A stretch of 24,000 bases of DNA from the NCBI RefSeq assembly GCF_037889915.1, contig NZ_JBBKZV010000010.1, forward strand, positions 15,387 through 39,386. Direction: 5' to 3'. Position numbers and translations under genes: made by a program. The DNA comes from Variovorax humicola (lineage in GTDB: Bacteria > Pseudomonadota > Gammaproteobacteria > Burkholderiales > Burkholderiaceae_C). The notes beneath the pieces are model-generated. The model was not told the origin of the DNA. It made no database searches and worked only from the letters and a program-made list of their open reading frames with translations. Shown here one piece after another: positions 10,334 to 23,661 of this stretch; the stretch's first letter is position 1; each line of letters opens with the position of its first letter.

Positions 10334-11116
10334 ATGACAGAGCCCACGATTTCGGCGAGCCAGGCTGGCGCCGTAACCACGCTGACGCTGAGCCGTCCAG
10401 CCGCGATGAACAGTTTCACGAGTGCGATGCACGCCGAACTGCTGGCGGCGCTGAACGCCGCCGCGGCCGATCCGTCGGTGCGCTGCGTGATCATCACGGG
10501 CGCTGGCCGCGGGTTCTGCGCGGGCCAGGACTTGAGCGATCCGGCCGCCGCGCCAGGACAGGACCTCGGCAAGTTGATCGAGGCGAACTATGCGCCCCTG
10601 GTCGAGCGCGTCCGCTCGATGCCGGTGCCGGTGATTGCCGCGGTGAACGGTGTCGCCGCGGGTGCCGGTGCCAATCTCGCCTTGTGCTGCGATCTCGTGA
10701 TTGCCGCGCGCTCCGCGTCTTTCATCCAGGCGTTCTCCAAGATCGGGTTGGTGGTGGACACCGGCGGAACCTGGCTGCTGCCGAGGCTGGTGGGCTCGGC
10801 GCGCGCGCTCGGCCTGGCCATGCTGGGCGACAAGGTGCCGGCGGCCGATGCCGCGCAGATGGGAATGATCTGGCAATGCGTCGACGACGCCGCGCTGCTC
10901 GACACCGCGAACGCCCTTGCGACGCGGCTCGCCGGCATGCCGACGCGTGCGCTGGTCGCTACGCGGCAGGCGTTGGTGGCCGCACAGGGCATGGACATGC
11001 GCGAGGCACTGCAACAGGAAGCCGCGCTGCAATCGGACCTCGGCGGTTCGCACGACTATCTCGAAGGCGTGGACGCGTTCCGCAACAAGCGCGCACCGAG
11101 CTTCACCGATCGCTGA
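10334..11116 (+). CDS. paaG: 2-(1,2-epoxy-1,2-dihydrophenyl)acetyl-CoA isomerase PaaG (crotonase superfamily)
   Basis: The crotonase motifs are [29 protein letters not shown] and [23 protein letters not shown], and the gene sits in paa context. The start is uncertain. I prefer the ATG at 10334 because the ATG at 10313 would begin 6 nt after the palindrome. Confidence 0.88.
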
Positions 11117-11144
11117 GCACCCGAGGCAGCCAACGCCGATCCAC

Positions 11145-11600
11145 ATGACAGCCCACATGACCGAACTCCCATCCCCACAACAAACTGCCGAGCATGTCCG
11201 CGAAGGCATGTTGCGCAACGACCGCGCGACACGTTCGCTCGGCATGCGCGTGGTCGACATCGCGCCGGGCACCGCAACGATCCGCATGCAGGTGCGCGAA
11301 GACATGCTCAACGGGCATGACATGTGCCACGGCGGTTTCATCGCCACGCTGGCCGATTCGGCCTTTGCCTTTGCGTGCAACTCGTACAACGAGATGACCG
11401 TCGCCTCCGGATTCGGCATCGATTTCATCGCGCCCGCGAAGCTCGGCGATGTGCTGAACGCGCGTTGCGAAGAGGTGTCGAAGGCCGGTCGCACCGGCGT
11501 CTATGACACCGAAGTCACCAACCAGCGGGGCGAGCGACTGGCTGTGTTCCGCGGCCGCTCGTACACCATGAAGGGCAAGCCGGCCGTCGTGCCTGCGTGA
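11145..11600 (+). CDS. paaI: Hydroxyphenylacetyl-CoA thioesterase PaaI (hotdog fold)
   Basis: NGHDMCHGGFIATLADSAFAFACN...GRTGVYDTEVTNQRGERLAVFRGRS is typical PaaI. An alternative ATG lies at 11157. The 227-aa track ORF start overlaps paaG out of frame and is rejected. Confidence 0.88.
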   Translation: MTAHMTELPSPQQTAEHVREGMLRNDRATRSLGMRVVDIAPGTATIRMQVREDMLNGHDMCHGGFIATLADSAFAFACNSYNEMTVASGFGIDFIAPAKLGDVLNARCEEVSKAGRTGVYDTEVTNQRGERLAVFRGRSYTMKGKPAVVPA

Positions 11601-11628: not shown

Positions 11629-12942
11629 ATGCCAGTGAAGCAACCGGGGCCCGACGACCTGTCGGCCATCGAGAAGGCCAGCCGCGACGAGATTGCCGCG
11701 CTGCAATTGGCGCGCATGAAGTCGACGTTGCAGCGGGCGTACGACAACGTGCCGCACTACCGCAAGACCTTCGATGCCAAGGGTGTGAAGCCGGGCGACC
11801 TGAAGCAGCTCGGCGACCTCTCGAAGTTTCCGTTCCTGGTCAAGTCCGACCTGCGCGACAACTACCCGTTCGGCCTCTTCGCCGTGCCGCGCGAACAGCT
11901 CGCGCGCGTGCATGCATCGTCCGGCACGACCGGCAAGCCGACTGTGGTCGGCTACACGAAAAACGACATCGACACATGGGCCGAGCTCGTCGCGCGATCG
12001 ATTCGCGCCGCAGGCGGCCGACCGGGCGACATGATCCACATCGCCTATGGCTATGGCCTGTTCACCGGCGGACTGGGCGCCCACTACGGTGCCGAACGCG
12101 CGGGCTGCACTGTCATCCCGATGTCGGGCGGGCAGACCGAGAAGCAGGTGCAGTTGATCCAGGACTTCAAGCCGTCCATCATCATGGTCACGCCCAGCTA
12201 CATGCAGGTGATCATCGAGGAGTTCACGCGCCAGGGCCTCGATGCGCGCGCGAGCTCGCTGAAGGTGGGCATCTTCGGCGCGGAGCCGTGGACCGAAGCG
12301 ATGCGCCACGACATCGAGCACAAGGCCGGCATCGATGCGGTCGACATCTACGGCCTCTCGGAAGTGATGGGCCCCGGCGTGGCCAGCGAATGCATCGAGA
12401 GCAAGGACGGCCCGGTGATCTGGGAAGACCATTTCTATCCCGAGATCATCGACCCCGACACCGGTGAACTGGTGCCCGACGGCGAGGAGGGCGAACTCGT
12501 CTTCACCTCGCTGACCAAGGAAGCATTCCCCGTCATCCGCTATCGCACGCGCGATCTCACGCGGCTGCTGCCGCCGACCTCGCGCTCGTTCCGCCGCATG
12601 GGCAAGATCGTCGGTCGCAGCGACGACATGATGATCATCCGTGGCGTCAACGTCTTTCCGACACAGGTCGAGGAGATCGTGCTCGCGCATGAGAAGCTCA
12701 CCGGCGTCTACCAGATGCACATCAGCCGCGAGGGGCTGCTCGACCAGGTCGAGGTGCATTGCGAACTGCAGCCCGGCAGCCACGTCAGTGAAAGCGACCG
12801 CAACGCGGTGGCGACGTGGGTGCAGCATCGCATCAAGACGCTGGTCGGCATCTCGACCGAAGTCCGGGTGTTCGACCCGAACACCATCGAACGCACGCAG
12901 ACCGGCAAGGCCCGCCGCGTGGTCGACAAACGCCCGCGCTGA
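11629..12942 (+). CDS. paaK: Phenylacetate-CoA ligase PaaK
   Basis: The 437-aa length and the motifs SSGTTGKPTVVGYT, YGLSEVMGPGV and IRYRTRDL are characteristic of PaaK. GAGGAGA (11619-11625) precedes the ATG. Confidence 0.93.
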   Translation: MPVKQPGPDDLSAIEKASRDEIAALQLARMKSTLQRAYDNVPHYRKTFDAKGVKPGDLKQLGDLSKFPFLVKSDLRDNYPFGLFAVPREQLARVHASSGTTGKPTVVGYTKNDIDTWAELVARSIRAAGGRPGDMIHIAYGYGLFTGGLGAHYGAERAGCTVIPMSGGQTEKQVQLIQDFKPSIIMVTPSYMQVIIEEFTRQGLDARASSLKVGIFGAEPWTEAMRHDIEHKAGIDAVDIYGLSEVMGPGVASECIESKDGPVIWEDHFYPEIIDPDTGELVPDGEEGELVFTSLTKEAFPVIRYRTRDLTRLLPPTSRSFRRMGKIVGRSDDMMIIRGVNVFPTQVEEIVLAHEKLTGVYQMHISREGLLDQVEVHCELQPGSHVSESDRNAVATWVQHRIKTLVGISTEVRVFDPNTIERTQTGKARRVVDKRPR

Positions 12943-12983
12943 GCGCTGCGCATTCATCCTCCGAGCGACGAACAAACCATTCC

Positions 12984-15431
12984 ATGCTGAAGAAACTTTC
13001 TCTCCTTTGCACAGCCCTTGCGCTGGCCGGCTGCGCCGCTACGACGGCTACCTCGACCGGAACGGCCACGATCAAGCGAGACACCTACGGCGTTCCGCAT
13101 GTCTACGCGAACGATGTGCGTGGCCTGTTCCACGGCTACGGCTATGTCGTGGCCGAAGACCGCCTCTTCCAGATGGAAATGGCGCGCCGCGCCGTGCTCG
13201 GGACCGTCTCGGAAGTCATGGGTCCGAACTATGTGGCGCTCGACAAGGGGAGCCGGTCGGCCTTCACGCCCGATTCCATCAAGGCGCAGATGGCCAGGTT
13301 GCCGCCCGATGAAAAGGCCATCTTCGACGGTTATGCAGCAGGCTTCAATGCACGCGTGAAAGAGGTGCTGGCTGCCAAGGGCACCCTGATGCCGAAGCAG
13401 TTCATCGACGCCGCCTTCGAGCCGAAGGCCGACTGGACCGGCTACGACGTTGCGATGATCTGGGTCGGCACCATGGCCAACCGCTACTCGAATGCGAGCA
13501 GCGAAATCGCCAACCTCCGTCTGCTGAATCAACTCCAGAAGGCGAAGGGCGATGCGCTCGGCCGCGAACTCTTCGACCAGATCCGCTGGATCGAGGATCC
13601 GCTTGCGCCGACCACGGTCCCGCGCAGCGGCGGGCAGAGGCAGGCCGCCGCGCTGCCGGCGAATGGTTCAGCGAAGGGTGACGATCCGTTGGCCCGCCTG
13701 GTGCCGGTCTCGCCAGAACTGCTGGCCTCCCGCAGCGACGTCGATGCGGCGTCGCGCGGTGTCGCGGAGCCGTGGCAGCGACCCATCGCAAGCAACCTCT
13801 GGATCACCGGGCCGAAAAAGACCAGCGACGGCAGCACGGTGCTCATCAACGGGCCGCAATTCAACTGGTTCAATCCGTCGTATGTGTTCGCCGTCGGGCT
13901 GCACGGCGCTGGCTACGACGTGACGGGCAACACGCCCTTCGCGCATCCGGTAATCCTGTTCGGCACCAACGGAAAGATCGCCTGGGGTGCGACTGCGGGC
14001 CCGCTGGATGTCAACGACATGTACCAGGAGAAGCTCAACGCGTCGAACCGCTACGAGTACCTCTTCAACGGTGCCATGCGGCCGATGGGCAAGCGCACGG
14101 AGATCATCAAGGTCAAGGGCCAGGCCGATCAGAGCCTGGATGTCTACTCGACAGTGCATGGCATCGTCACGGACTTCGATCTTCCGAACAACACCGCCTT
14201 CTCGATGAAGCGGAGCTGGGACGGCCATGAGCTCGAATCGCTGCTCGGCTGGATCCATTCCATGCAGGCAAAGAACTGGGACCAGTGGCTGGCGCAGGCT
14301 TCGCGAGTCGCGATCACCATCAACTGGTACTACGCGGACGCCGACGGAAACATCGGTTACGTCTCGCCCGGTCGACTGCCGATCCGCCCCGCCTCGCAGG
14401 ACGTTCGCCTGCCGGCGATCGGCGACGGCTCGATGGAGTGGCAGGGCATTCGTCCCTTCAAGGAAGACCCGCAGGTGTTCAATCCCGCGCAGGGCTACAT
14501 CGCCAACTGGAACAACCAGTCCGCGCCAGGCGCGGTCAGCGATGGCGGCAACTACGCGGCGGCAGACCGGGTCAATGAATTCATCACGCGCCTCGAAGCC
14601 AAGCCGCGCCTGACGCGCGATGAGCTTTGGGCCATCAACCGCAGCACGGCCTACGCGGACACCAACGCGCGCTATTTCGTCCCGTTCATCGTGGAGGCCA
14701 CGCGCGGTTTGCCAGCCACGGATCCGGCGCATCGCGCTGCGCAGATCCTTGCCGCGTGGAACATGGAGAACGACGACCCGACCGAGCAAGGTGCCTACCA
14801 GAGCCCGGCCACGACGATCATGATGGCGTGGCTGCCGATCATCTACAAGCAATTGCTGGCCGACGATCTGCCGCCCGAAGTGTTCGCGGCCTATTCGAAC
14901 GGAGGCTACGCGGGCGCGACGCAAGTCGCCAGCATCCGGCCGGGTAATGGCTCCAAGCTGCTCTACAACGCATTGCTCGGCCCCAAGGCCGGGGTGCCGC
15001 AGCGCTACGACTTCTTCAATGGCGCCGACAAGAACGCGATGATCCGCAGCACTCTCGCACAGGCCGTGTCCGAGTTGACGGCGCAGTACGGCAGCGATAC
15101 GGCCCGGTGGCGCACGCCGGTCACCAGGCACGTGTTCCTCACCAGCAACTTCATCGGAGCGCCGCAGGCCAACGCCGACGAATTGCTGACGCTGCCGAGC
15201 TACATGAACCGCGGTTCGCAGAACGACAAGGTGGTGTTCTCGGCCGGCAGCGTTTCCATGTGCACGGCGGCACCGCCCGGACAGAGCGGCTTCGTTGCGC
15301 CAGACGGCCGCAAGGCGGCGCACTATAGCGACCAGATGGCGCTCTTCAAGGACTTCGGCTGCAAGAGCGAGTCGCTGACGCCGGCCGAGGTGGACCGGAA
15401 TCTCGAATCGACCAAGCAGTTGGCGTATTGA
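12984..15431 (+). CDS. pac: Penicillin G acylase (Ntn-hydrolase, EC 3.5.1.11-type) precursor with a lipoprotein signal peptide
   Basis: Long stretches match my memory of E. coli PGA. Alpha chain: [34 protein letters not shown] and [15 protein letters not shown]. The beta chain starts at [10 protein letters not shown]...[34 protein letters not shown], with the catalytic Ser codon at 13791-13793. Further matches are [23 protein letters not shown] and [13 protein letters not shown]. The N-terminus [17 protein letters not shown] has a lipobox (LAGC, Cys17). Confidence 0.92.
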
Positions 15432-15451
15432 CCCTTCAACAGGAGATCACG

Positions 15452-16462
15452 ATGTACACGCAAGCCATGGACACGATGGGCAAGGAGCCCGGCGACGGCA
15501 AGAAGGCGGTTCGCTCCGCCGAGGAAATGCAGTTCGAGGAACGCTTCGACGCGCACATCGACGCCGGCGATTTCATCGAGGCGAAGGACTGGATGCCCGA
15601 CCACTACCGCAAGACGCTGGTGCGGCAGATCAGCCAGCATGCGCATTCGGAAATCGTCGGCATGCTGCCGGAGGGCAACTGGATCAGCCGCGCGCCCACG
15701 TTGAAGCGCAAGGCCATCCTGCTGGCCAAGGTGCAGGACGAGGGCGGCCACGGCCTCTATCTCTACGCGGCGGCCGAAACGCTCGGCACCTCGCGCGACC
15801 AGATGTTCGATGCGCTGCACAGCGGCAAGGCCAAGTACAGCTCGATCTTCAACTACCCGACGCTGACCTGGGCCGACATCGGCACCATCGGCTGGCTGGT
15901 CGACGGCGCGGCAATCATGAACCAGGTGCCGATCTGCCGCTGCTCTTATGCGCCGTATGCGCGCGCCATGATCCGCATCTGCCGCGAAGAGAGTTTCCAT
16001 CAGCGCCAGGGCTACGAAGCCCTGCTCACGATGATGACCAAGGGCACAGCCGCGCAGAAGGCGATGGTGCAGGACGCGGTCAATCGCTGGTGGTGGCCGT
16101 CGATCATGATGTTCGGCCCGCCGGACGACCAGTCGCCCAACAGCGCGCAGTCAATGCGTTGGGGCATCAAGCGTTTCAGCAACGACGAACTGCGCCAGAA
16201 GTTCATCGACGCGGCGGTGGAGCAGGCGCGCATTCTCGGCGTGACCCTGCCCGACCCGGATCTGAAGTGGAACGAGGAGCGCCAGGCGCACGACCACGGC
16301 GCGATCGACTGGAGTGAATTCTGGCGTGTGATCGGCGGCGATGGGCCGTGCAACCGCGAACGGCTGGCGGCGCGCGTCAAGGCCTGGGAAGACGGCGCAT
16401 GGGTGCGCGAAGCCGCACTCGCACACGCCCGCAAGCAATCAACCTTGAAGGAAGCAGCATGA
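15452..16462 (+). CDS. paaA: 1,2-phenylacetyl-CoA epoxidase catalytic subunit PaaA (di-iron oxygenase)
   Basis: The di-iron ligand regions are [10 protein letters not shown] and [17 protein letters not shown] (15441-15446) lies 5 nt upstream of the ATG at 15452. The TTG at 15428 overlaps the pac stop and is less likely. Confidence 0.93.
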
Positions 16463-16524
16463 TCGACGCACGGCCGCCCGAAGGCGATCGCACCGCAACG
16501 CGTAGCGCGGAGGTTACCCAATGA
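16459..16524 (+). repeat. Copy A of a dispersed 62-bp intergenic element; contains a 21-codon mini-ORF ([21 protein letters not shown]) ATGA-coupled to the paaA stop and the paaB start
   Basis: The ATG at 16459-16461 overlaps the paaA TGA (16460-16462). The mini-ORF TGA (16522-16524) overlaps the paaB ATG (16521). GGAGG lies at 16509-16513. Hand alignment to the copy at 21728 gives 55/62 identical positions. Confidence 0.85.
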
Positions 16525-16811
16525 CTACCGAAAACGAATGGCCCCTGTGGGAAGTTTTCGTCCGCAGCAAGGCGGGCCTGGACCACAAGCATTGCGGCAG
16601 CCTGCATGCCGCCGACTCGAAGATGGCCATCCAGATGGCGCGCGACGTCTACACGCGCCGGCAGGAAGGCTGCAGCGTCTGGGTGGTGCGCTCCGAGCAG
16701 ATCGTGGCAAGCGACCCCGGCGACAAGGACATGTACTTCGACCCGGCCGAAGACAAGGTCTACCGCCACCCGACCTTCTACGTGCTGCCCAAGGCCGTGG
16801 ACCACATGTGA
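16521..16811 (+). CDS. paaB: 1,2-phenylacetyl-CoA epoxidase subunit PaaB
   Basis: The 96-aa product, WPLWEVFVRSKAGLDHKHCGSLHAADSKMAIQMARDVYTRR...DKDMYFDPAEDKVYRHPTFY, is the conserved PaaB signature. Confidence 0.93.
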   Translation: MTTENEWPLWEVFVRSKAGLDHKHCGSLHAADSKMAIQMARDVYTRRQEGCSVWVVRSEQIVASDPGDKDMYFDPAEDKVYRHPTFYVLPKAVDHM

Positions 16812-16821
16812 GCGCGTCGCC

Positions 16822-17595
16822 ATGCAATCGTCCATCGAACTCCAACTGACGCCTTCCGCGCAGTACCTGCTGCGCATCGGCGACACCTGCCTGATCCTCG
16901 CCCAGCGGCTCGGCGAATGGTGCGGCCATGCGCCCATCCTCGAGGAAGACATCGCCATGTCGAACATCGCGCTCGACCTCATCGGCCAGGCGCGGGCCTT
17001 GCTGACGCGGGCCGGTGAAATCGAAGGCCGGCAACACGACGAAGACCAGCTGGCCTTCCTTCGCAACGAGCGCGATTACTTCAACCTGACGATGGTCGAA
17101 CTGCCGCGCGGCGACTTCGCTTTCAGCGTGCTGCGCAACACCATGGTCTCGACCTGGCTCAAGCTGCTGTGGGAACGGCTCGCGAATTCGACCGATCCCG
17201 AGGTCAACGCGATTGCCGGCAAGGCGCTGAAGGAAGCGCGCTATCACCAGCAGCATTCGGGCGATTGGGTGGTGCGCCTGGGCGACGGGACCGACGAGTC
17301 GCGCAATCGCATGAAGGCCGCGCTCGAACAACTGGGGCGCTATGTGGCCGAGATGTTCGACACCGATGCCGTCGACGAACAGGCCCATGAAGCCGGCATG
17401 GGGCCGCTCTGGTCCGAGCTGAAGGCGCCGTGGCAGGCGGAGATGCAACAGATCCTGGACGAAGCCGGCCTCGCGATGCCCGCCGAATCCGCCTTCCGCA
17501 GCGAAGGCAAGCGCGGCATGCACAGCGAGCACATGGGCTTCATCCTGACCGACATGCAGTACCTGCAGCGCAGCTTTCCCGGAGGCGTGTGGTGA
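16822..17595 (+). CDS. paaC: 1,2-phenylacetyl-CoA epoxidase subunit PaaC
   Basis: YLLRIGDTCLILAQRLGEWCGHAPILEEDIAMSNIALDLIGQAR is a ferritin-like PaaC sequence. The gene lies between paaB and paaD. The track ORF start at 16606 overlaps paaB out of frame. Confidence 0.9.
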   Translation: MQSSIELQLTPSAQYLLRIGDTCLILAQRLGEWCGHAPILEEDIAMSNIALDLIGQARALLTRAGEIEGRQHDEDQLAFLRNERDYFNLTMVELPRGDFAFSVLRNTMVSTWLKLLWERLANSTDPEVNAIAGKALKEARYHQQHSGDWVVRLGDGTDESRNRMKAALEQLGRYVAEMFDTDAVDEQAHEAGMGPLWSELKAPWQAEMQQILDEAGLAMPAESAFRSEGKRGMHSEHMGFILTDMQYLQRSFPGGVW

Positions 17596-18128
17596 CGCTG
17601 GAACTGGTTGCCGCGGACGTACAGGGCGAGCGCCTGCGCGCGGCCTGGGACGTGCTCGCATCGGTGCTCGACCCCGAGGTGCCCGCCGTTTCGGTGCGTG
17701 ACCTCGGCATCGTGCGCGACGTGATCGAGCACGACGACGGGCTCGAGATCGTGCTGACGCCGACCTACTCCGGCTGCCCCGCGACCGAGGTGATCGAGCA
17801 CGACGTGTTGGCCGCCGTCGATGCCGCGGGCCTCGGCCCGGCCCGCGTCAGCCTGCGCCGCGCACCGGCCTGGACCACCGACTGGATCAGCGCCGAAGGC
17901 CGCCGCAAGCTCGCCGAATACGGCATTGCGCCACCCGGCCCGGCGACTTCGCAGGAAGCGGCACCCGTCCGGTTCTTCGGCCGTCGCAGCGAGGCGGAAA
18001 AACTCGCCTGCCCACGCTGCGGCAGTTTCCACACCGAGCGGCTCGCGGCCTTCGGTTCCACCGCATGCAAGGCGATCTACCGTTGCCTGACCTGCAAAGA
18101 GCCCTTCGAGCACTTCAAGCCGATCTGA
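17592..18128 (+). CDS. paaD: 1,2-phenylacetyl-CoA epoxidase subunit PaaD (DUF59/MIP18-like domain plus C-terminal Cys4 ribbon)
   Basis: LDPEVPAVSVRDLGIVRDV...TPTYSGCPA is followed by CPRCGS...CLTC. The GTG start at 17592 overlaps the paaC TGA (GTGA), with GGAGG at 17581-17585. A GTG at 17589 is an alternative. Confidence 0.85.
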   Translation: MTLELVAADVQGERLRAAWDVLASVLDPEVPAVSVRDLGIVRDVIEHDDGLEIVLTPTYSGCPATEVIEHDVLAAVDAAGLGPARVSLRRAPAWTTDWISAEGRRKLAEYGIAPPGPATSQEAAPVRFFGRRSEAEKLACPRCGSFHTERLAAFGSTACKAIYRCLTCKEPFEHFKPI

Positions 18129-18139
18129 TCGAGAACACC

Positions 18140-19225
18140 ATGAGCGTCATGTTCCATCCACTGCGTGTTCGCGCCATCGAGCCCGATACGCAAGAGGCTG
18201 TCATCGTCTCCTTCGACGTGCCGCCCGACCTGCGGGAAGTGTTCGGCTTTACGCAGGGCCAGTACCTCACCTTGCGCACCGACATCGACGGGCAGGACCT
18301 ACGCCGTTCGTATTCGATCTGCGCCGGTGTCGACGACGGCGAACTGCGCGTCGGCGTGCGCAAGGTGCGCGGCGGCGTGTTCTCCAACTGGATCAACGAA
18401 CACCTGCAGCCCGGCCACACCGTGCAGGTCATGGCGCCGCAGGGCCGCTTCTTCGTGCCGCTCGATCCGAAGTCGCAACGCCATCACGTCGGCATTGCCG
18501 GCGGCAGCGGCATCACGCCCATCCTTTCCATCATGAAGACGGTGCTGGCGCGCGAGCCGAAAAGCCGCTTCACGTTGATCTACGGCAACCGCCTGCTTCA
18601 ATCGACGATGTTCAAGGAAGAGATCGAAGACCTCAAGAACCGCTACATGACGCGGCTGGTGCTGCAGCACGTGTTCTCCGACGAGCACACCGACGCGCCG
18701 ATCAACCATGGCGTGATGGACCGCGCGAAGATCGGCGAATTCCTGAAGAGCATCGTGCCGGCGGCCGGCATCGACCACGTGTTCGTGTGCGGACCGTTCC
18801 AAATGAACGACGAGGCCGAGGCCGCGCTGCTCGACGCCGGCGTGCCCGAGGAGCGCATCCACATCGAGCGCTTCGGTGTCGCGTTGCCATCCACCGGCCC
18901 CGTCGGCGCCGTGGTGCACGAGGCCAAGCCCGGCGATGCCGAGACGGCGCGCATCGTCATCGTGCGCGACGGGTTGCACCGGGAGATCTCGTTCACCAAG
19001 AACCAGCCGAGCATTCTCGATGCCGCATCGGCCGCGGGGCTGGAGGTTCCGTATTCCTGCACTTCCGGCGTGTGCGGCACCTGCCGCGCCAAGCTGATCG
19101 AGGGCGAGGTGCGCATGGAGCGCAACTTTGCGCTGGACAAGAAGGAAGTGGCCAGCGGCTTCATCCTGACCTGCCAGGCGCACCCGCTGACAGAGCGTGT
19201 CGTTCTCTCATTCGACGAACGCTGA
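18140..19225 (+). CDS. paaE: 1,2-phenylacetyl-CoA epoxidase reductase subunit PaaE (FNR-like FAD/NAD domains plus plant-type [2Fe-2S] ferredoxin)
   Basis: The motifs are RSYSIC (FAD), GIAGGSGITP (NAD) and the C-terminal CTSGVCGTCRAKL...LTCQA cluster motif. Confidence 0.93.
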   Translation: MSVMFHPLRVRAIEPDTQEAVIVSFDVPPDLREVFGFTQGQYLTLRTDIDGQDLRRSYSICAGVDDGELRVGVRKVRGGVFSNWINEHLQPGHTVQVMAPQGRFFVPLDPKSQRHHVGIAGGSGITPILSIMKTVLAREPKSRFTLIYGNRLLQSTMFKEEIEDLKNRYMTRLVLQHVFSDEHTDAPINHGVMDRAKIGEFLKSIVPAAGIDHVFVCGPFQMNDEAEAALLDAGVPEERIHIERFGVALPSTGPVGAVVHEAKPGDAETARIVIVRDGLHREISFTKNQPSILDAASAAGLEVPYSCTSGVCGTCRAKLIEGEVRMERNFALDKKEVASGFILTCQAHPLTERVVLSFDER

Positions 19226-19465
19226 TGCACCCGAATGCACCGCGCCCGGTGCGCCATGCGGCGTTGCTCCTCCTTGTGGGCATGAGCCCGCGGCGTCGTC
19301 GCGCCTTGCCTGGCGCGGCGATCGCGACGCACTCGGGCGCATCGGCCTCCATCTCGAGGCACAAGGCGCACGGGTACATCCCGATGACGACGATGCAATG
19401 AAAACCGTCAACTACCGCTGGCACTTCGCCTTCCATTTTTCAAGAAACACCACCTCGGAGAAGAC

Positions 19466-20611
19466 ATGAAATCTTTCAAGCCACTGCTGCTGATTGCCCT
19501 GCTCGGGGCTGCCGTTGCCGCACAGGCCGACGTCAACGTCGGCGTCACGCTGTCGGCCACCGGGCCGGCGGCATCGCTCGGCATCCCGGAGAAGAACACG
19601 ATCGCGCTGATGCCCAAGACCATCGGCGGGCAGAAGGTCAACTACATCCTGCTCGACGATGCGTCCGACACGACCGCGGCGGTGGCCAACACGCGCAAGC
19701 TCATCGCGGAAAGCAAGGTCGACGTGGTGCTCGGCTCGACCGTCACGCCGGCTTCGCTGGCGATGATCGACGTGATCTCCGAGGCGAAGACGCCGATGAT
19801 CTCGATGGCCGCCTCGGCGCGCATCGTCGAGCCGATGGACGACAAGCGCAAGTGGGTCTTCAAAACGCCGCAGAACGACATCATGATGTCACTTGCCATT
19901 GCCGAGCACATGCAGAAGTCGGGCGTGAAGACGGTCGGCTTCATCGGCTTCTCCGACGCGTACGGCGAAGGCTGGTACCAGGAGTTCGGCAAGGCCGCCG
20001 GGCTCAAGGGCCTGACCATCGTCGCCAACGAGCGCTTCAGCCGCAGCGACACGTCCGTCACCGGCCAGGCGCTGAAGATCCTGTCGGCCAAGCCTGATGC
20101 GGTGCTGGTCGCCGGCTCTGGCACCCCGGCCGCGCTGCCCCAGAAGACGCTGAAGGAGCGCGGCTATGCCGGCAAGATGTACCAGACGCACGGCGTGGCG
20201 AACGGCGACTTCCTGCGCGTGGGCGGCAAGGATGTCGAGGGCACCTTCCTGCCCGCAGGGCCGGTGCTCGTAGCCGACCAGCTGCCCGCCGGGAACCCGG
20301 TGAAGAAGAGCGCGCTGGCGTACATCGCGGCCTATGAGGGCGCGAATGGCAAGGGCAGTGTCTCTACCTTCGGCGGCCACGCATGGGACGCCGGCCTGCT
20401 GATGGCGGCCGCGGTTCCGGTCGCACTGAAGAAGGCGCAACCCGGTACGCCGGAGTTCCGCGTCGCGTTGCGCGACGCACTGGAGCAGGTCAATGAATTG
20501 CCCGGCGCGCACGGCATCTTCACCATGTCGCCGACCGATCACCTCGGGCTCGACCAGCGCGCACGCGTGATGGTCAAGATCGAGAACGGCGCCTGGAAAT
20601 TCCAGCCCTGA
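19466..20611 (+). CDS. ABC transporter periplasmic substrate-binding protein, Leu/Ile/Val-binding (LivK/PBP type 1) family
   Basis: It has a signal peptide (MKSFKPLLLIALLGAAVAAQA/DV). The 381-aa length and VGVTLSATGPAASLGIPEKN are typical of this family. GGAGAAG lies upstream of the ATG. The ligand is unknown. Confidence 0.88.
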   Translation: MKSFKPLLLIALLGAAVAAQADVNVGVTLSATGPAASLGIPEKNTIALMPKTIGGQKVNYILLDDASDTTAAVANTRKLIAESKVDVVLGSTVTPASLAMIDVISEAKTPMISMAASARIVEPMDDKRKWVFKTPQNDIMMSLAIAEHMQKSGVKTVGFIGFSDAYGEGWYQEFGKAAGLKGLTIVANERFSRSDTSVTGQALKILSAKPDAVLVAGSGTPAALPQKTLKERGYAGKMYQTHGVANGDFLRVGGKDVEGTFLPAGPVLVADQLPAGNPVKKSALAYIAAYEGANGKGSVSTFGGHAWDAGLLMAAAVPVALKKAQPGTPEFRVALRDALEQVNELPGAHGIFTMSPTDHLGLDQRARVMVKIENGAWKFQP

Positions 20612-20640
20612 GCTTCGGCTTGCCCCATAGAAAGTAATTC

Positions 20641-21669
20641 ATGGACGCACAGATCGCCCTGCTGCTTGCGCAGGACGGCCTCGTGAATGGTGCGGTGTAC
20701 GGATTGATGGCGCTGGCCCTGGTGCTGGTCTTTTCCGTCACCCGCGTCATCTTCATTCCGCAAGGCGAATTCGTGGCCTTCGGCGCGCTGTCGATGGCCA
20801 TGATGCAGGCCGGCCGCGTGCCGGCGACGCTGTGGCTGCTGCTGGTGCTCGCCGCGCTGGCGCTGATCGTCGAGGCATGGCGCTGGAAGCGCGGCCTCAC
20901 GGTCGAGTGGACGTCTGCGCTGCTGTGGTGCGTGGCATTCCCGCTGGCCGCCTGCGCGCTCGCATTGGCATGGAAGCCCACTGGCGTCGCGGCGCAAGCC
21001 GTCACGACGCTGGTGCTGATCATGCCGCTCGGGCCGCTGCTCTATCGCCTCGCATTCCGGCCGATGGTCAATGCCACGGTGCTGACGCTGCTGATCGTCT
21101 CTGTCGCGCTGCATGGCGTGCTGGTGGGGCTCGGCTTGCTGTTCTTCGGTGCCGAAGGTTCGCGCACGCCGGCCTTCTCGGACGCACGCTTCGACCTGGC
21201 CGGCCTGCAGGTGACAGGGCAATCGATCGTCGTCATCGGCGTGACCTTCGTGCTGGTGGTGCTGATGTTCCAGTTCTTCGGCCGCTCGATGGTCGGCAAG
21301 GCCTTGCGTGCGACGGCGATGAACCGTGTCGGCGCCCGGCTGATGGGCATTCCGACGGAGTTGGCGGGCGATGTGAGCTTTGCGCTGGCGGCGCTCATCG
21401 GCGCGGTGTCGGGCCTGTTGATCGCGCCACTGACCACGGTCTACTACGACACGGGCTTTCTCATCGGCCTGAAGGGGTTCGTGGCCGCGATCGTTGGTGG
21501 GCTGGGCAGCTATCCGGCGGCCTTGCTCGGCGCGCTGCTGGTCGGGCAACTCGAATCGTTTTCTTCCTTCTGGGCCAGCGCCTTCAAGGAGGTCCTGGTG
21601 TTCACGCTGATCATTCCGGTGCTGTGGTGGCGCTCGCTGCGCAGCCATCATGTGGAGGATGAGGAATGA
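20641..21669 (+). CDS. Branched-chain-amino-acid-type ABC transporter permease (LivH-like)
   Basis: The product is polytopic and hydrophobic, with a LivH-like N-terminus ([18 protein letters not shown]) and C-terminal [17 protein letters not shown]. At 342 aa it is somewhat longer than typical LivH. Confidence 0.88.
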
Positions 21670-21731
21670 ACGCCGCACGGCCGCTTGAAGGCGTTCGCAC
21701 CGTAGCGCGCAGCGCGGAGGTTTTCCAATGA
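21666..21731 (+). repeat. Copy B of the 62-bp element; mini-[28 protein letters not shown]-coupled to the livH-like stop and to copy C
   Basis: The ATG at 21666-21668 overlaps the permease TGA (21667-21669). Its TGA (21729-21731) overlaps the next ATG (21728). It matches copy C at 59/62 positions. Confidence 0.88.
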
Positions 21732-21793
21732 ACGCCGCACGGCCGCCCGAAGGCGTTCGCACCGTAGCGCGTAGCGCGGAGGTTTTCCAATGA
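21728..21793 (+). repeat. Copy C of the 62-bp element; mini-ORF MNAARPPEGVRTVARSAEVFQ, ATGA-coupled to copy B and to the downstream permease/ATPase gene
   Basis: It starts exactly 62 bp after copy B. Its TGA (21791-21793) overlaps the ATG at 21790. GGAGG at 21778-21782 serves as the SD for the 21790 start. Confidence 0.88.
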
Positions 21794-23661
21794 ACACGTC
21801 AGTCAAGAATCCGGCGTTGTCCGCAGCGACATCGGGCGGGCTGCTCACGCGCCGCCATCTCACGCTGGCCGCCATCGCGTTGCTCGCGGGGGTCTGGGGC
21901 TGGCTGCCCGAATTCACCGTCGTGGTGATGAGCTACATCGGCCTCTATGCGCTCGTCGCCGTGGGCCTTGCGATGCTCACCGGCGTCGGCGGCATGACCT
22001 CATTCGGGCAGGCCGCGTTCGTCGGCATGGGCGCCTATGCGACGGCATGGTCCTGCACTTCGCCGTGGGCCGCATCGACCATCGGCGCGGTGGTGGGCAC
22101 GGGATTGCTGCCCTGGGTCGGCCTGCTGCTCGGCTTGGCGCTGACCTTCGCACTGGCCTGGATGCTCGGTGCCGTCACGGTCAAGCTGCAAGGCCACTAC
22201 CTGCCGCTGTGCACCATTGCCTGGGGCCTGAGCCTCTACTACCTGTTCGGCAACATGGAGTTCCTCGGCGGCCAGACCGGCATCACCGGGGTGCCGGCGC
22301 TGGTGATTGCCGGCTGGTCGCTGGCCTCGCCGCGCGCGCTGGGCATCGTGATCTGGGCCGTGCTGCTGATCGCCTTGTGGCTGTTGCACAACCTGCTCGA
22401 TTCGCGCGAAGGGCGCGCGGTGCGTGCACTCAAGAACGGCCGGCTCATGGCCGAGTCGATGGGTGTGGACACGGCCCGCTATCGCATCAAGCTGTTCGTG
22501 CTCGCGGCCCTGATGGCGGCGATTTCCGGCTGGCTCTATGCGCACATGCAGCGCTTCGTGAACCCGACGCCGTTCAATCTCAACATTGGCATCGAGTACC
22601 TGTTCATGGCGGTGGTCGGCGGTGCCGGACACCTGTGGGGCGCGGTGCTCGGCGCGGCGTTGATCACGCTGCTCAAGGAGAAGTTGCAGGACATTCTTCC
22701 GGGGCTGCTCGGGTCGAGCGGCAATTTCGAGGTGATCGTGTTCGGCCTGCTGATGCTGCTGGTGTTGCAGCGCTTCGCGGAAGGCTTGTGGCCTGCGTTG
22801 GAGCGCCTGGGCCAGCGCTTCCTGCGAGCGGATGCGGCACCCGCGCCGCGCGGCATGGCAGCGCTGGCGCGCCGCGTGTTGCCGGCGCGCGGCACGGTGC
22901 TGCTGCAGTCGTCCAGCGTCACCAAGCGCTTCGGCGGGCTGGTCGCCAACAACTCGGTCTCGATGAACGTGAAGGCCGGCGAGATCCACGCATTGATCGG
23001 CCCCAACGGTGCGGGAAAGAGCACCTTCTTCAACATGATCTCGGGCGTCGACGATCCGACCGAAGGCGAGGTGCGCCTGATGGACAAACCCATGCGCGAA
23101 TTGCCCGCGCGCGACTTCGCGTCGCTGGGCCTGGGCCGCACCTTCCAGCACGTGCGCCTGCTGGGGCAGCGAAGCGTGATCGAGAACGTGGCGCTCGGCG
23201 CGCACCTTCGCGCCAAACGCGGCTGGGTTGCTTCGATGCTGCGGCTCGACCGTGGCGAAGAGGCGGCATTGCTGGCCGAAGCGCGCCACCAGATCGAGCG
23301 ATGCGGCCTCGGCGCGCATGCCGACACGCCAGCCGCTTCGCTCGCGCTGGGCCAGCAGCGCGTGGTCGAGATTGCACGTGCGCTGGCAAGCCAGCCGGCC
23401 GTGCTGCTGCTCGACGAGCCTGCGGCGGGACTGCGCCACCTGGAAAAACGCGCACTGGCCGAACTGCTTTCGCAGCTGCGCGCCGAAGGCCTCGGCATCC
23501 TGGTGGTCGAGCACGACATGGAGTTCGTCATGAACCTGGCCGACCGCATCACGGTGCTGGAGTTCGGCACGGTGATCGCCGAAGGCAAGCCGGCCGAAGT
23601 GCAAGCCAACCCGCGCGTGCTCGATGCCTACCTGGGCGGCGCGGAGGAGGTGACGCCATGA
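21790..23661 (+). CDS. Fused LivM-like permease / LivG-like ATP-binding protein of a branched-chain-amino-acid-type ABC transporter
   Basis: The N-terminal ~350 aa are polytopic (LivM-like). The C-terminal ~260 aa carry Walker A GPNGAGKSTFFN, the signature-region LALGQQRVVEIARAL, and Walker B VLLLDEPAAGL. Confidence 0.9.
   Translation: MNTSVKNPALSAATSGGLLTRRHLTLAAIALLAGVWGWLPEFTVVVMSYIGLYALVAVGLAMLTGVGGMTSFGQAAFVGMGAYATAWSCTSPWAASTIGAVVGTGLLPWVGLLLGLALTFALAWMLGAVTVKLQGHYLPLCTIAWGLSLYYLFGNMEFLGGQTGITGVPALVIAGWSLASPRALGIVIWAVLLIALWLLHNLLDSREGRAVRALKNGRLMAESMGVDTARYRIKLFVLAALMAAISGWLYAHMQRFVNPTPFNLNIGIEYLFMAVVGGAGHLWGAVLGAALITLLKEKLQDILPGLLGSSGNFEVIVFGLLMLLVLQRFAEGLWPALERLGQRFLRADAAPAPRGMAALARRVLPARGTVLLQSSSVTKRFGGLVANNSVSMNVKAGEIHALIGPNGAGKSTFFNMISGVDDPTEGEVRLMDKPMRELPARDFASLGLGRTFQHVRLLGQRSVIENVALGAHLRAKRGWVASMLRLDRGEEAALLAEARHQIERCGLGAHADTPAASLALGQQRVVEIARALASQPAVLLLDEPAAGLRHLEKRALAELLSQLRAEGLGILVVEHDMEFVMNLADRITVLEFGTVIAEGKPAEVQANPRVLDAYLGGAEEVTP

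Follow-up and report, generated by a model that had tools for sequence, protein, structure and literature searches.

Variovorax humicola carries, in the 24,000-nt stretch analysed here (RefSeq assembly GCF_037889915.1, contig NZ_JBBKZV010000010.1, positions 15,387 to 39,386; henceforth termed the window), phenylacetate (paa) genes and adjoining genes for a liv-type ATP-binding cassette (ABC) transporter, which together form one cluster (11629-23661). The subject of this report is a short repeat at stop/start junctions of this cluster. Two permease genes of the transporter, livH and livMG, are separated by a 120-nt gap that is occupied by two head-to-tail 62-bp units, detected by Tandem Repeats Finder as a single array in the window (21665-21795, period 62, 2.1 copies, 95% matches). 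The two units are identical at 59 of 62 positions, the differences being CC to TT at unit positions 20-21 and T to C at position 45.

ATGA-linked mini-ORFs at two gene junctions

Together with the flanking genes, the units form an unbroken chain of open reading frames (ORFs), 20641-21669 (342 amino acids, aa), 21666-21731 (21 aa), 21728-21793 (21 aa) and 21790-23661 (623 aa), in which every junction is a 4-nt ATGA overlap. A GGAGG motif lies 7 nt before the following ATG in each unit (Table 1). A preliminary description of this DNA had reported two near-identical units between a LivH-like and a LivM/G-like gene, their ATGA-coupled 21-codon mini-ORFs and the spacing of the GGAGG motif; the coordinates, the 59/62 identity, the gap length, the overlaps in the ORF list and the motif positions in both units were all confirmed. 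An open frame of 21 codons in sequence of 70% G+C is weak evidence when taken by itself, and it is the comparative data, together with the ATGA ends and the 3n-1 length, that lend weight to the observation.

A 29-nt core pattern, allowing up to three mismatches, matches the window three times as opposed to 0.00 expected matches (100 shuffles). The third match is a separate full unit at 16459-16520 that the preliminary description had overlooked. It is located between paaA and paaB, is 62 bp long with ATGA at both ends, contains a 21-codon ORF and has GGAGG in the same place. One stem position is altered on both sides, from GAACGCC/GGCGTTC to GATCG-C/GGCGATC. The same unit also occurs, next to an identical PaaB, in an independent 1.2-kb soil-metagenome contig (L001; L numbers denote comparison loci) and is therefore not an assembly artefact. 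The local density is high for a seemingly low-copy family, which has one or two matching places per 1.3-2.5 Mb replicon.

Table 1. Genes, repeat units and internal features at the two unit-bearing junctions of the window.
Feature	Position	Strand	Remarks
paaA (1,2-phenylacetyl-CoA epoxidase subunit A)	15428-16462	+	TGA 16460-16462 overlaps unit 3 ATG; true start probably downstream of the listed TTG
Unit 3, 62 bp	16459-16520	+	55/62 identical to unit 2; mini-ORF 16459-16524; covariance model 74.6 bits
Unit 3, internal features	hairpin 1 16461-16489; GGAGG 16509-16513	+	one mismatch in hairpin 1
paaB	16521-16811	+	ATG overlaps unit 3 TGA
LivH/UrtB-type branched-chain amino acid ABC permease (livH)	20641-21669	+	TGA 21667-21669 overlaps unit 1 ATG; 3' end aligns with orthologues
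Unit 1, 62 bp	21666-21727	+	mini-ORF 21666-21731; covariance model 78.9 bits
Unit 1, internal features	hairpin 1 21668-21696; hairpin 2 21705-21715; GGAGG 21716-21720	+	
Unit 2, 62 bp	21728-21789	+	mini-ORF 21728-21793, peptide MNAARPPEGVRTVARSAEVFQ; covariance model 84.0 bits
Unit 2, internal features	hairpin 1 21730-21758; hairpin 2 21767-21777; GGAGG 21778-21782	+	
LivM-type permease fused to LivG-type ATPase (livMG)	21790-23661	+	ATG overlaps unit 2 TGA

Empty sites in close relatives

The orthologous junctions were compared in V. robiniae (L002) and V. brevis J22R133 (L003), whose LivH proteins are 95% and 90% identical, respectively, to the LivH-like protein of the window. In both species the gene calls of paaA/paaB and of livH/livMG overlap by 4 nt, and in the alignments only ATGA stands at the points where the window is longer by 62 bp (paaA/paaB) or 124 bp (livH/livMG); the junctions read GAAGGAAGCAGCATGAGC... 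and GGAGGACGAGGAATGA..., respectively. Since the closest relatives have plain ATGA overlaps at these sites, the units at both window junctions are precise insertions relative to close relatives. This agrees with the preliminary description, which had interpreted the repeat as an insertion module and had proposed the comparison of orthologous livH/livM junctions as a check. Both relatives have the element at other places (L092, L034). A local duplication of an ordinary spacer was considered as well and was rejected, since it does not account for the empty sites, for the third copy or for the dispersed family described below.

The paa-liv gene order of the window is shared by the V. robiniae and V. 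brevis loci, and the two ATGA junctions of the cluster, 5.3 kb apart, have units in this strain only. A metagenomic relative (L004, LivH 94% identical) carries a different insert of 132 bp at the same livH/livMG ATGA junction (11030-11161), which starts with ATGACTGGCATGAATTC, ends with GGGCATGA and runs in frame into the downstream gene. Part of this insert resembles (75% over 68 nt) a stretch downstream of a different ATGA junction in V. rhizosphaerae, and the regions L106:2429-2504 and L005:1456-1470 were grouped with it. The insert may represent a second junction-dwelling repeat family; as the L004 assembly is apparently nanopore-derived, indels within the 132 bp are uncertain.

A dispersed family in Burkholderiales

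A collection with one genome per species was scanned with the internal core CGNCGCNCGGCCGCYYGAAGGCG, which does not include the unit ends. The core has at least 136 matches in at least 120 stretches, almost all from Burkholderiales. The genera among the matches listed are Variovorax, Ramlibacter, Rhodoferax, Xenophilus, Xylophilus, Hydrogenophaga, Roseateles, Ottowia, Bordetella, Achromobacter and others, and the few actinobacterial matches listed lie inside unrelated sequence and were taken as chance. In 50 of the 136 matches listed, ATGA lies exactly 5 nt ahead of the core, compared with five or fewer matches for any other offset. Among the 63 NTGA-anchored matches listed, 38 pass through one or more mini-ORFs without a gap to reach an ORF of 100 codons or more, a further 19 are continuous in frame with an ORF of that size, and three are broken; in 50 of them, an upstream frame that spans at least 100 codons or reaches the locus edge stops at the 5' TGA.

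For the 62-bp type, we built an alignment of 32 units (A3) and, from positions 5-62 only, a covariance model (R1) that was searched against approximately 1 Mb of loci fetched from the core matches. The model recovered 46 units of this type (Comamonadaceae/Burkholderiales). NTGA flanks 38 of the 46 on the 5' side (35 ATGA) and 38 on the 3' side (30 ATGA, 7 GTGA, 1 TTGA), and most units have long co-directional ORFs on either side. The positions of the copies are not arbitrary, as the preliminary description had predicted, and this holds in a profile search run without the unit ends. Its further proposal that the geometry tolerates tandem amplification is borne out by arrays of two or three units at seven loci (the window, L013, L049, L068, L098, L009 and L106), with periods of 62 or 63. 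Copy number also differs at one orthologous junction, with one unit in L079 and two in L098.

The operons that host the unit are functionally unrelated and include paa, ABC transporter, nonribosomal peptide synthetase/phosphopantetheinyl transferase and plasmid acyltransferase genes. A 65-nt variant is visible in the deposited annotation of the Diaphorobacter sp. JS3051 IncP plasmid pDCB2 (L127) and of V. paradoxus VAI-C (L128), where the variant begins at position 1201, the upstream coding sequence (CDS) extends to 1204 and the downstream CDS has its start at 1266. On pDCB2, which is conjugative, it is flanked by genes for an ABC ATPase and an acyltransferase, and a copy on such a plasmid could allow the family to spread horizontally. 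A metagenome scan with the window-specific 20-mer GGCGTTCGCACCGTAGCGCG returned nine matches, all inside unrelated sequence and attributable to chance.

Hairpins, reading frame and peptide

The two hairpins proposed for the unit pair in 95.5% of the cells of alignment A3, compared with 20-55% when the partners are slid. Compensatory pairs occur at positions 5/29 (GC 22, AU 3, UA 3), 41/49 (CG 14, UA 14) and 42/48 (GC 25, CG 7), and RNAalifold predicts extra pairs between ACC (34-36) and GGU (54-56), over part of the GGAGG motif. The searches for known RNA features were negative: Rfam gave no match at gathering score in the window, L059, L085 or L108 (nothing meaningful at E <= 10; best sub-threshold E = 2.1), and terminator and promoter prediction placed no site on the units. 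An intrinsic terminator, i.e., a GC-rich stem followed by a T run, was rejected accordingly. The preliminary description had likewise seen neither a plain REP nor a terminator in the unit, whose arrays are direct and whose consensus lacks a GTAG or CGTC tag.

Variability in A3 is flat over the three codon positions (0.084/0.100/0.097), and the compensatory stem changes swap V/A, S/R and A/T residues. For these two reasons, the mini-ORF peptide itself does not look selected. The frame of the unit does look constrained: none of the ATG-started units contains a stop before codon 20, and the length variants, which are small in number, comprise eight cases of +1 or -2 nt (3n, in-frame fusion) and one of -1 nt that retains a TGATG overlap.

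Length classes and orientations

Elements that share the core hairpin fall into length classes of 62 bp, 65, 83-87 bp and 95-107 bp, plus a reverse-orientation type. The 83-87-bp class is characterized by a GCCCCC/GGGGGG hairpin and GCGTGGGGG, and the longer types form in-frame arrays whose periods (84, 87, 78 and 75) are all divisible by 3. In the reverse type (L015, L041, L055, L057, L078, L091, L093, L123), the core hairpin runs opposite to the genes, in the layout ATG..GCCCCCACGCTCACTTCGTTCGCTGCCCCCCGAGGGGGCGCGTCAG-core-CTGAC-ATG. A 23-27-codon ORF bridges the upstream stop and the downstream start; it begins beside the upstream stop, and its CTGAC end lies one base ahead of the downstream ATG. 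Bridging forms (L059, L071, L085) combine the exact window core with the module GCCCCCTCGGGGGGCAGC of the Beta-proteobacterial repeat element (BRE), a published repeat that is compared below.

Variants of 3n length run in frame into the downstream gene (L006:1501-1600; L012, L049, L061, L073). In deposited annotations, some copies of the element are covered by CDS features, and this points to N-terminal extensions or incorrectly set starts; in the two annotated copies that were inspected (H10, H11), the CDS overlaps only the first four bases of the unit. One orthologous Variovorax junction (..cttacctggggagcgtcgtATGAG..) harbors an 86-nt subtype in L019 (3453-3542), L089 and L112 and a 95-nt subtype in L062, which suggests repeated hits or turnover at that site.

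A proposed near-neutral translational relay

We consider it likely that the window units are copies of a dispersed, tandemly amplifiable Burkholderiales repeat, a 62-bp short form of BRE, whose ends mimic a stop/start overlap and which would act as a near-neutral relay. In the proposed layout, the ATGA at the beginning of a unit would provide both the ATG that starts the mini-ORF and the TGA that closes the upstream gene. Two predicted GC-rich hairpins and a putative GGAGG Shine-Dalgarno sequence would follow, and the next ATGA, 7 nt after GGAGG, would supply the stop of the mini-ORF and the start of the next cistron. The length is 3n-1, and one or several units would therefore fit an ATGA junction without an untranslated base. 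A ribosome that ends the upstream gene at UGA would be positioned on the overlapping AUG, the G of which, with the following A, lies in the predicted foot of hairpin 1. It could re-initiate on the mini-ORF and translate its 21 codons, thereby opening hairpin 2 and the Shine-Dalgarno sequence that is partly paired by the outer ACC/GGU pairs, and termination at the next AUGA would hand the ribosome over to the start of the next cistron or unit. Insertion would thereby be near neutral for the operon, with the coupling layout left intact by one or several units, which would explain the persistence of insertions and the tolerance of arrays. The 21-aa peptides are probably by-products.

How the repeat moves may be reflected in its boundaries. 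A unit that follows ATGA and ends in ATGA would rebuild its own site with each insertion, and candidate modes of movement are microhomology-mediated integration at translation-start sequences or the action of a hairpin-recognizing enzyme in trans. Flanking direct repeats range from 4 to 12 nt and measure 8-12 nt in L079, L092, L105, L037, L013 (1002-1140) and L127 (1201-1277); TGAGCGACGCG and ATGACCGCCGCC are examples of long bracketing repeats of 11-12 nt. Of 33 terminal units, 13 have GCG after the 3' NTGA, as opposed to 6.9% of 638 ordinary NTGA junctions, and livMG in the window starts with ATGAAC (21790-21795), which equals the unit start, where relatives have ATGACC, ATGAGC or ATGAGT. 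The direct repeats, the GCG bias and the ATGAAC start hint at microhomology-mediated integration or gene conversion, which they fit at least as well as a fixed-site transposase. The preliminary description had proposed a module that targets ATGA junctions: the copies do sit there, and this location does not separate targeting from wider insertion with survival only at such junctions.

Several points weigh against a coupled mobile repeat. The coupling is read from the geometry of starts and stops; the preliminary claim that translational coupling is preserved accordingly stands as a description of the sequence layout, from which we infer translation and coupling themselves. The folding energy of the unit is no better than that of shuffled sequence (minimum free energy z -0.6 to +1.5), and the argument for the hairpins is therefore one of covariation and not of stability. 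The core loop was set by the search pattern, which makes its conservation partly circular. A phmmer search of ORFs of at least 70 aa in the approximately 1 Mb of loci found no Y1 transposase, a weak test given the approximate IS608 TnpA query. Finally, stems are T/A-rich and ATGA coupling is absent in the Bordetella BREs, the type that was published; coupling therefore belongs to some subfamilies and not to the whole family.

Alternative explanations

The hairpins could instead belong to a host regulatory RNA, i.e., intercistronic structures kept to set the expression ratio of cistrons or the stability of the mRNA and not near-neutral insertions. REP hairpins in malEFG are a precedent for such a role, and the compensatory changes in both hairpins, the predicted pairing of part of GGAGG and the occurrence of the same 86-nt unit at one orthologous junction in three species (L019, L089, L112) would be in line with it. 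In addition, Bordetella BRE loci are transcribed as small RNAs (PMC3110155). A conserved regulator is, however, difficult to reconcile with presence/absence polymorphism at two junctions of one conserved cluster among relatives that are 90-95% identical, and the same unit is found in functionally unrelated operons, with differing copy numbers at orthologous sites (L079, L098) and an unexceptional folding energy. We regard this explanation as unlikely. Functional 21-residue peptides, with the repeat as a small duplicated gene, are far more improbable still. Each unit does offer an open frame, an ATG and an upstream Shine-Dalgarno sequence, and the motif M-S/N-A-A-R-P-P-E-G recurs; yet the variability lacks a third-position excess, compensatory stem changes switch residues freely, the conserved RPPEG falls in the hairpin loop that is conserved at the nucleotide level, the peptide has no match among protein families, and 3n variants fuse the peptide to unrelated proteins. 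The codon-position and compensatory-change evidence led us to reject a functional peptide.

Transposition offers a different account of the same boundaries. The unit might be a miniature element of the REP/REPIN or IS200/IS605 type, mobilized by a Y1 (HUH) transposase that reads the hairpins and cuts 3' of ATGA, in which case the link to gene junctions would reflect survival only. IS608 and ISDra2 integrate on the 3' side of a defined tetra- or pentanucleotide and do not duplicate the target, and two hairpins, one near each end, with ATGA at both boundaries would be compatible with an IS200/IS605 derivative. The loop retains GGCCGCCC even in divergent subfamilies, orientation is strict, and the same tetranucleotide before and at the end of the unit means that the target is recreated, which would explain the head-to-tail arrays. 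Against this stand a family consensus without a GTAG or CGTC tag, the absence of inverted REPIN pairs, the negative (weak) transposase search mentioned above and the 4-12-nt range of the flanking direct repeats, a spread more in keeping with microhomology than with cleavage at a fixed site. Moreover, few copies are located at non-start ATGA, though intergenic ATGA should be a neutral target. A Y1-moved element appears doubtful to us, marginally more so than the regulatory RNA.

Comparison with known repeats

The favored interpretation, a junction-dwelling repeat with a translational relay, can be placed among described elements, of which the preliminary description knew none with this geometry. 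That statement does not hold: mycobacterial interspersed repetitive units (MIRUs) match it exactly (PMC12548453), and the sequence family has been published as BRE, without coupling (PMC3110155). Like REP, BIME and REPIN sequences, the units are dispersed, GC-rich extragenic hairpins between co-directional genes and transcribed in operons (PMC2817692, PMC3733652). They differ in lacking GTAG/CGTC (consensus CCGCAG), in forming direct and not inverted arrays, in the absence of a RAYT from our (weak) search and in being strictly anchored at start codons with their own Shine-Dalgarno sequence, start and stop. A miniature inverted-repeat transposable element of the terminal-inverted-repeat type was dismissed, as the ends are direct (ATGA...ATGA) and the flanking direct repeats of 4-12 nt are not of fixed length. 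Rickettsia palindromic elements (cited in PMC3733652) are likewise palindromic repeats tolerated in translated sequence, and in the present family 3n-length variants and 84/87-bp arrays are read in frame into the downstream protein. The Rickettsia elements insert within coding regions, whereas the units described here occupy stop/start boundaries, most of them as separate cistrons. The bicistronic design of synthetic biology, in which a short leader ORF supplies a target gene with ribosomes, holds the Shine-Dalgarno sequence of that next gene and ends in an overlap of stop and start (cited in PMC12548453), is engineered and not a genomic repeat, so that the resemblance is functional only; the units would be natural examples of it.

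The closest relative in sequence is BRE (Hot 2011), a repeat of approximately 90 bp in Bordetella and Comamonadaceae with tandem arrays, variable copy number and features of mobile elements, some copies of which overlap ORF ends by a few bases (PMC3110155). The paper makes no mention of start/stop coupling, mini-ORFs or hairpins, and our literature search found no later work on BRE and nothing relevant on MIRU-like or intercistronic repeats; sequence strings of the unit matched published text by chance only. The family described here is equally dispersed in Betaproteobacteria, tandem and variable in copy number. The BRE sequences listed in the supplement of PMC3110155 can be aligned with those of the longer subfamilies, and with the window unit if a gap of approximately 25 nt is allowed. 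In alignment A5, both share the first hairpin with loop GGCCGCCC and the 3' block GCGCAGCG(T/C)GG(G/A)GG. The three BRE modules are hairpin 1 (loop GGCCGCCC), GCCCCCYYGGGGGGCAGC, and a third hairpin with GCGTGGGGG, of which the window unit keeps the first hairpin and the last block. Published BREs measure 75-91 bp and have T/A-run stems in Bordetella, whereas the window unit measures 62 bp, lacks the middle GCCCCC/GGGGGG hairpin (approximately 25 nt) and has GGAGG instead of GGGGG. BRE, a published repeat of unknown function, would on this evidence include forms built on stop/start overlaps. For annotation, the units are a probable cause of mis-called gene starts and N-terminal extensions, and they are potential variable-number tandem repeat typing markers.

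The layout itself is that of MIRUs (Supply 1997), whose unit ORF overlaps the preceding gene's stop with its start and the following gene's start with its stop (PMC12548453). According to the same source, MIRUs share with the present units their short length (tens of bp), head-to-tail arrangement inside operons and -4 start/stop spacing, as well as dispersed loci, variable copy number and presumed mobility with minimal effect on expression. In line with this, we find tandem units of 62-bp period in operons with an overlapping start/stop ORF (NTGA in 38 of 46 units at each end), in Variovorax and not in Mycobacterium, and the relatives found all belong to Burkholderiales. Classic MIRU units of 77 and 53 bp are also of 3n-1 length. 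The kinship is one of layout, an analogy between Actinobacteria and Betaproteobacteria and not an established common descent, and the present family differs in its two covarying hairpins and in subfamilies of reverse hairpin orientation that still keep the relay. Judged by its sequence, the Variovorax unit is a short BRE derivative with a MIRU-type layout. The existence of many subfamilies, in both orientations and all with a putative translational relay at Burkholderiales gene junctions, appears undescribed in the literature searched.

To our knowledge, the spread of MIRU-type elements and their location at start codons have been unexplained since the description in 1997. With a second family of this layout, which spans many genera, several length classes and several orientations, the spread of such elements can be approached through comparison and through experiments in culturable Variovorax. 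We tentatively propose, as a possibility that we hold to be somewhat short of even, that Burkholderiales harbor a large modular superfamily of translation-transparent mobile repeats with one shared hairpin and a start, Shine-Dalgarno sequence and stop specific to each subfamily, which colonize stop/start junctions and possibly integrate by microhomology instead of a transposase. If so, the superfamily would parallel MIRUs independently, with a far wider distribution, and would offer enough comparative material to study both its movement and the hand-over of ribosomes by mini-ORFs.

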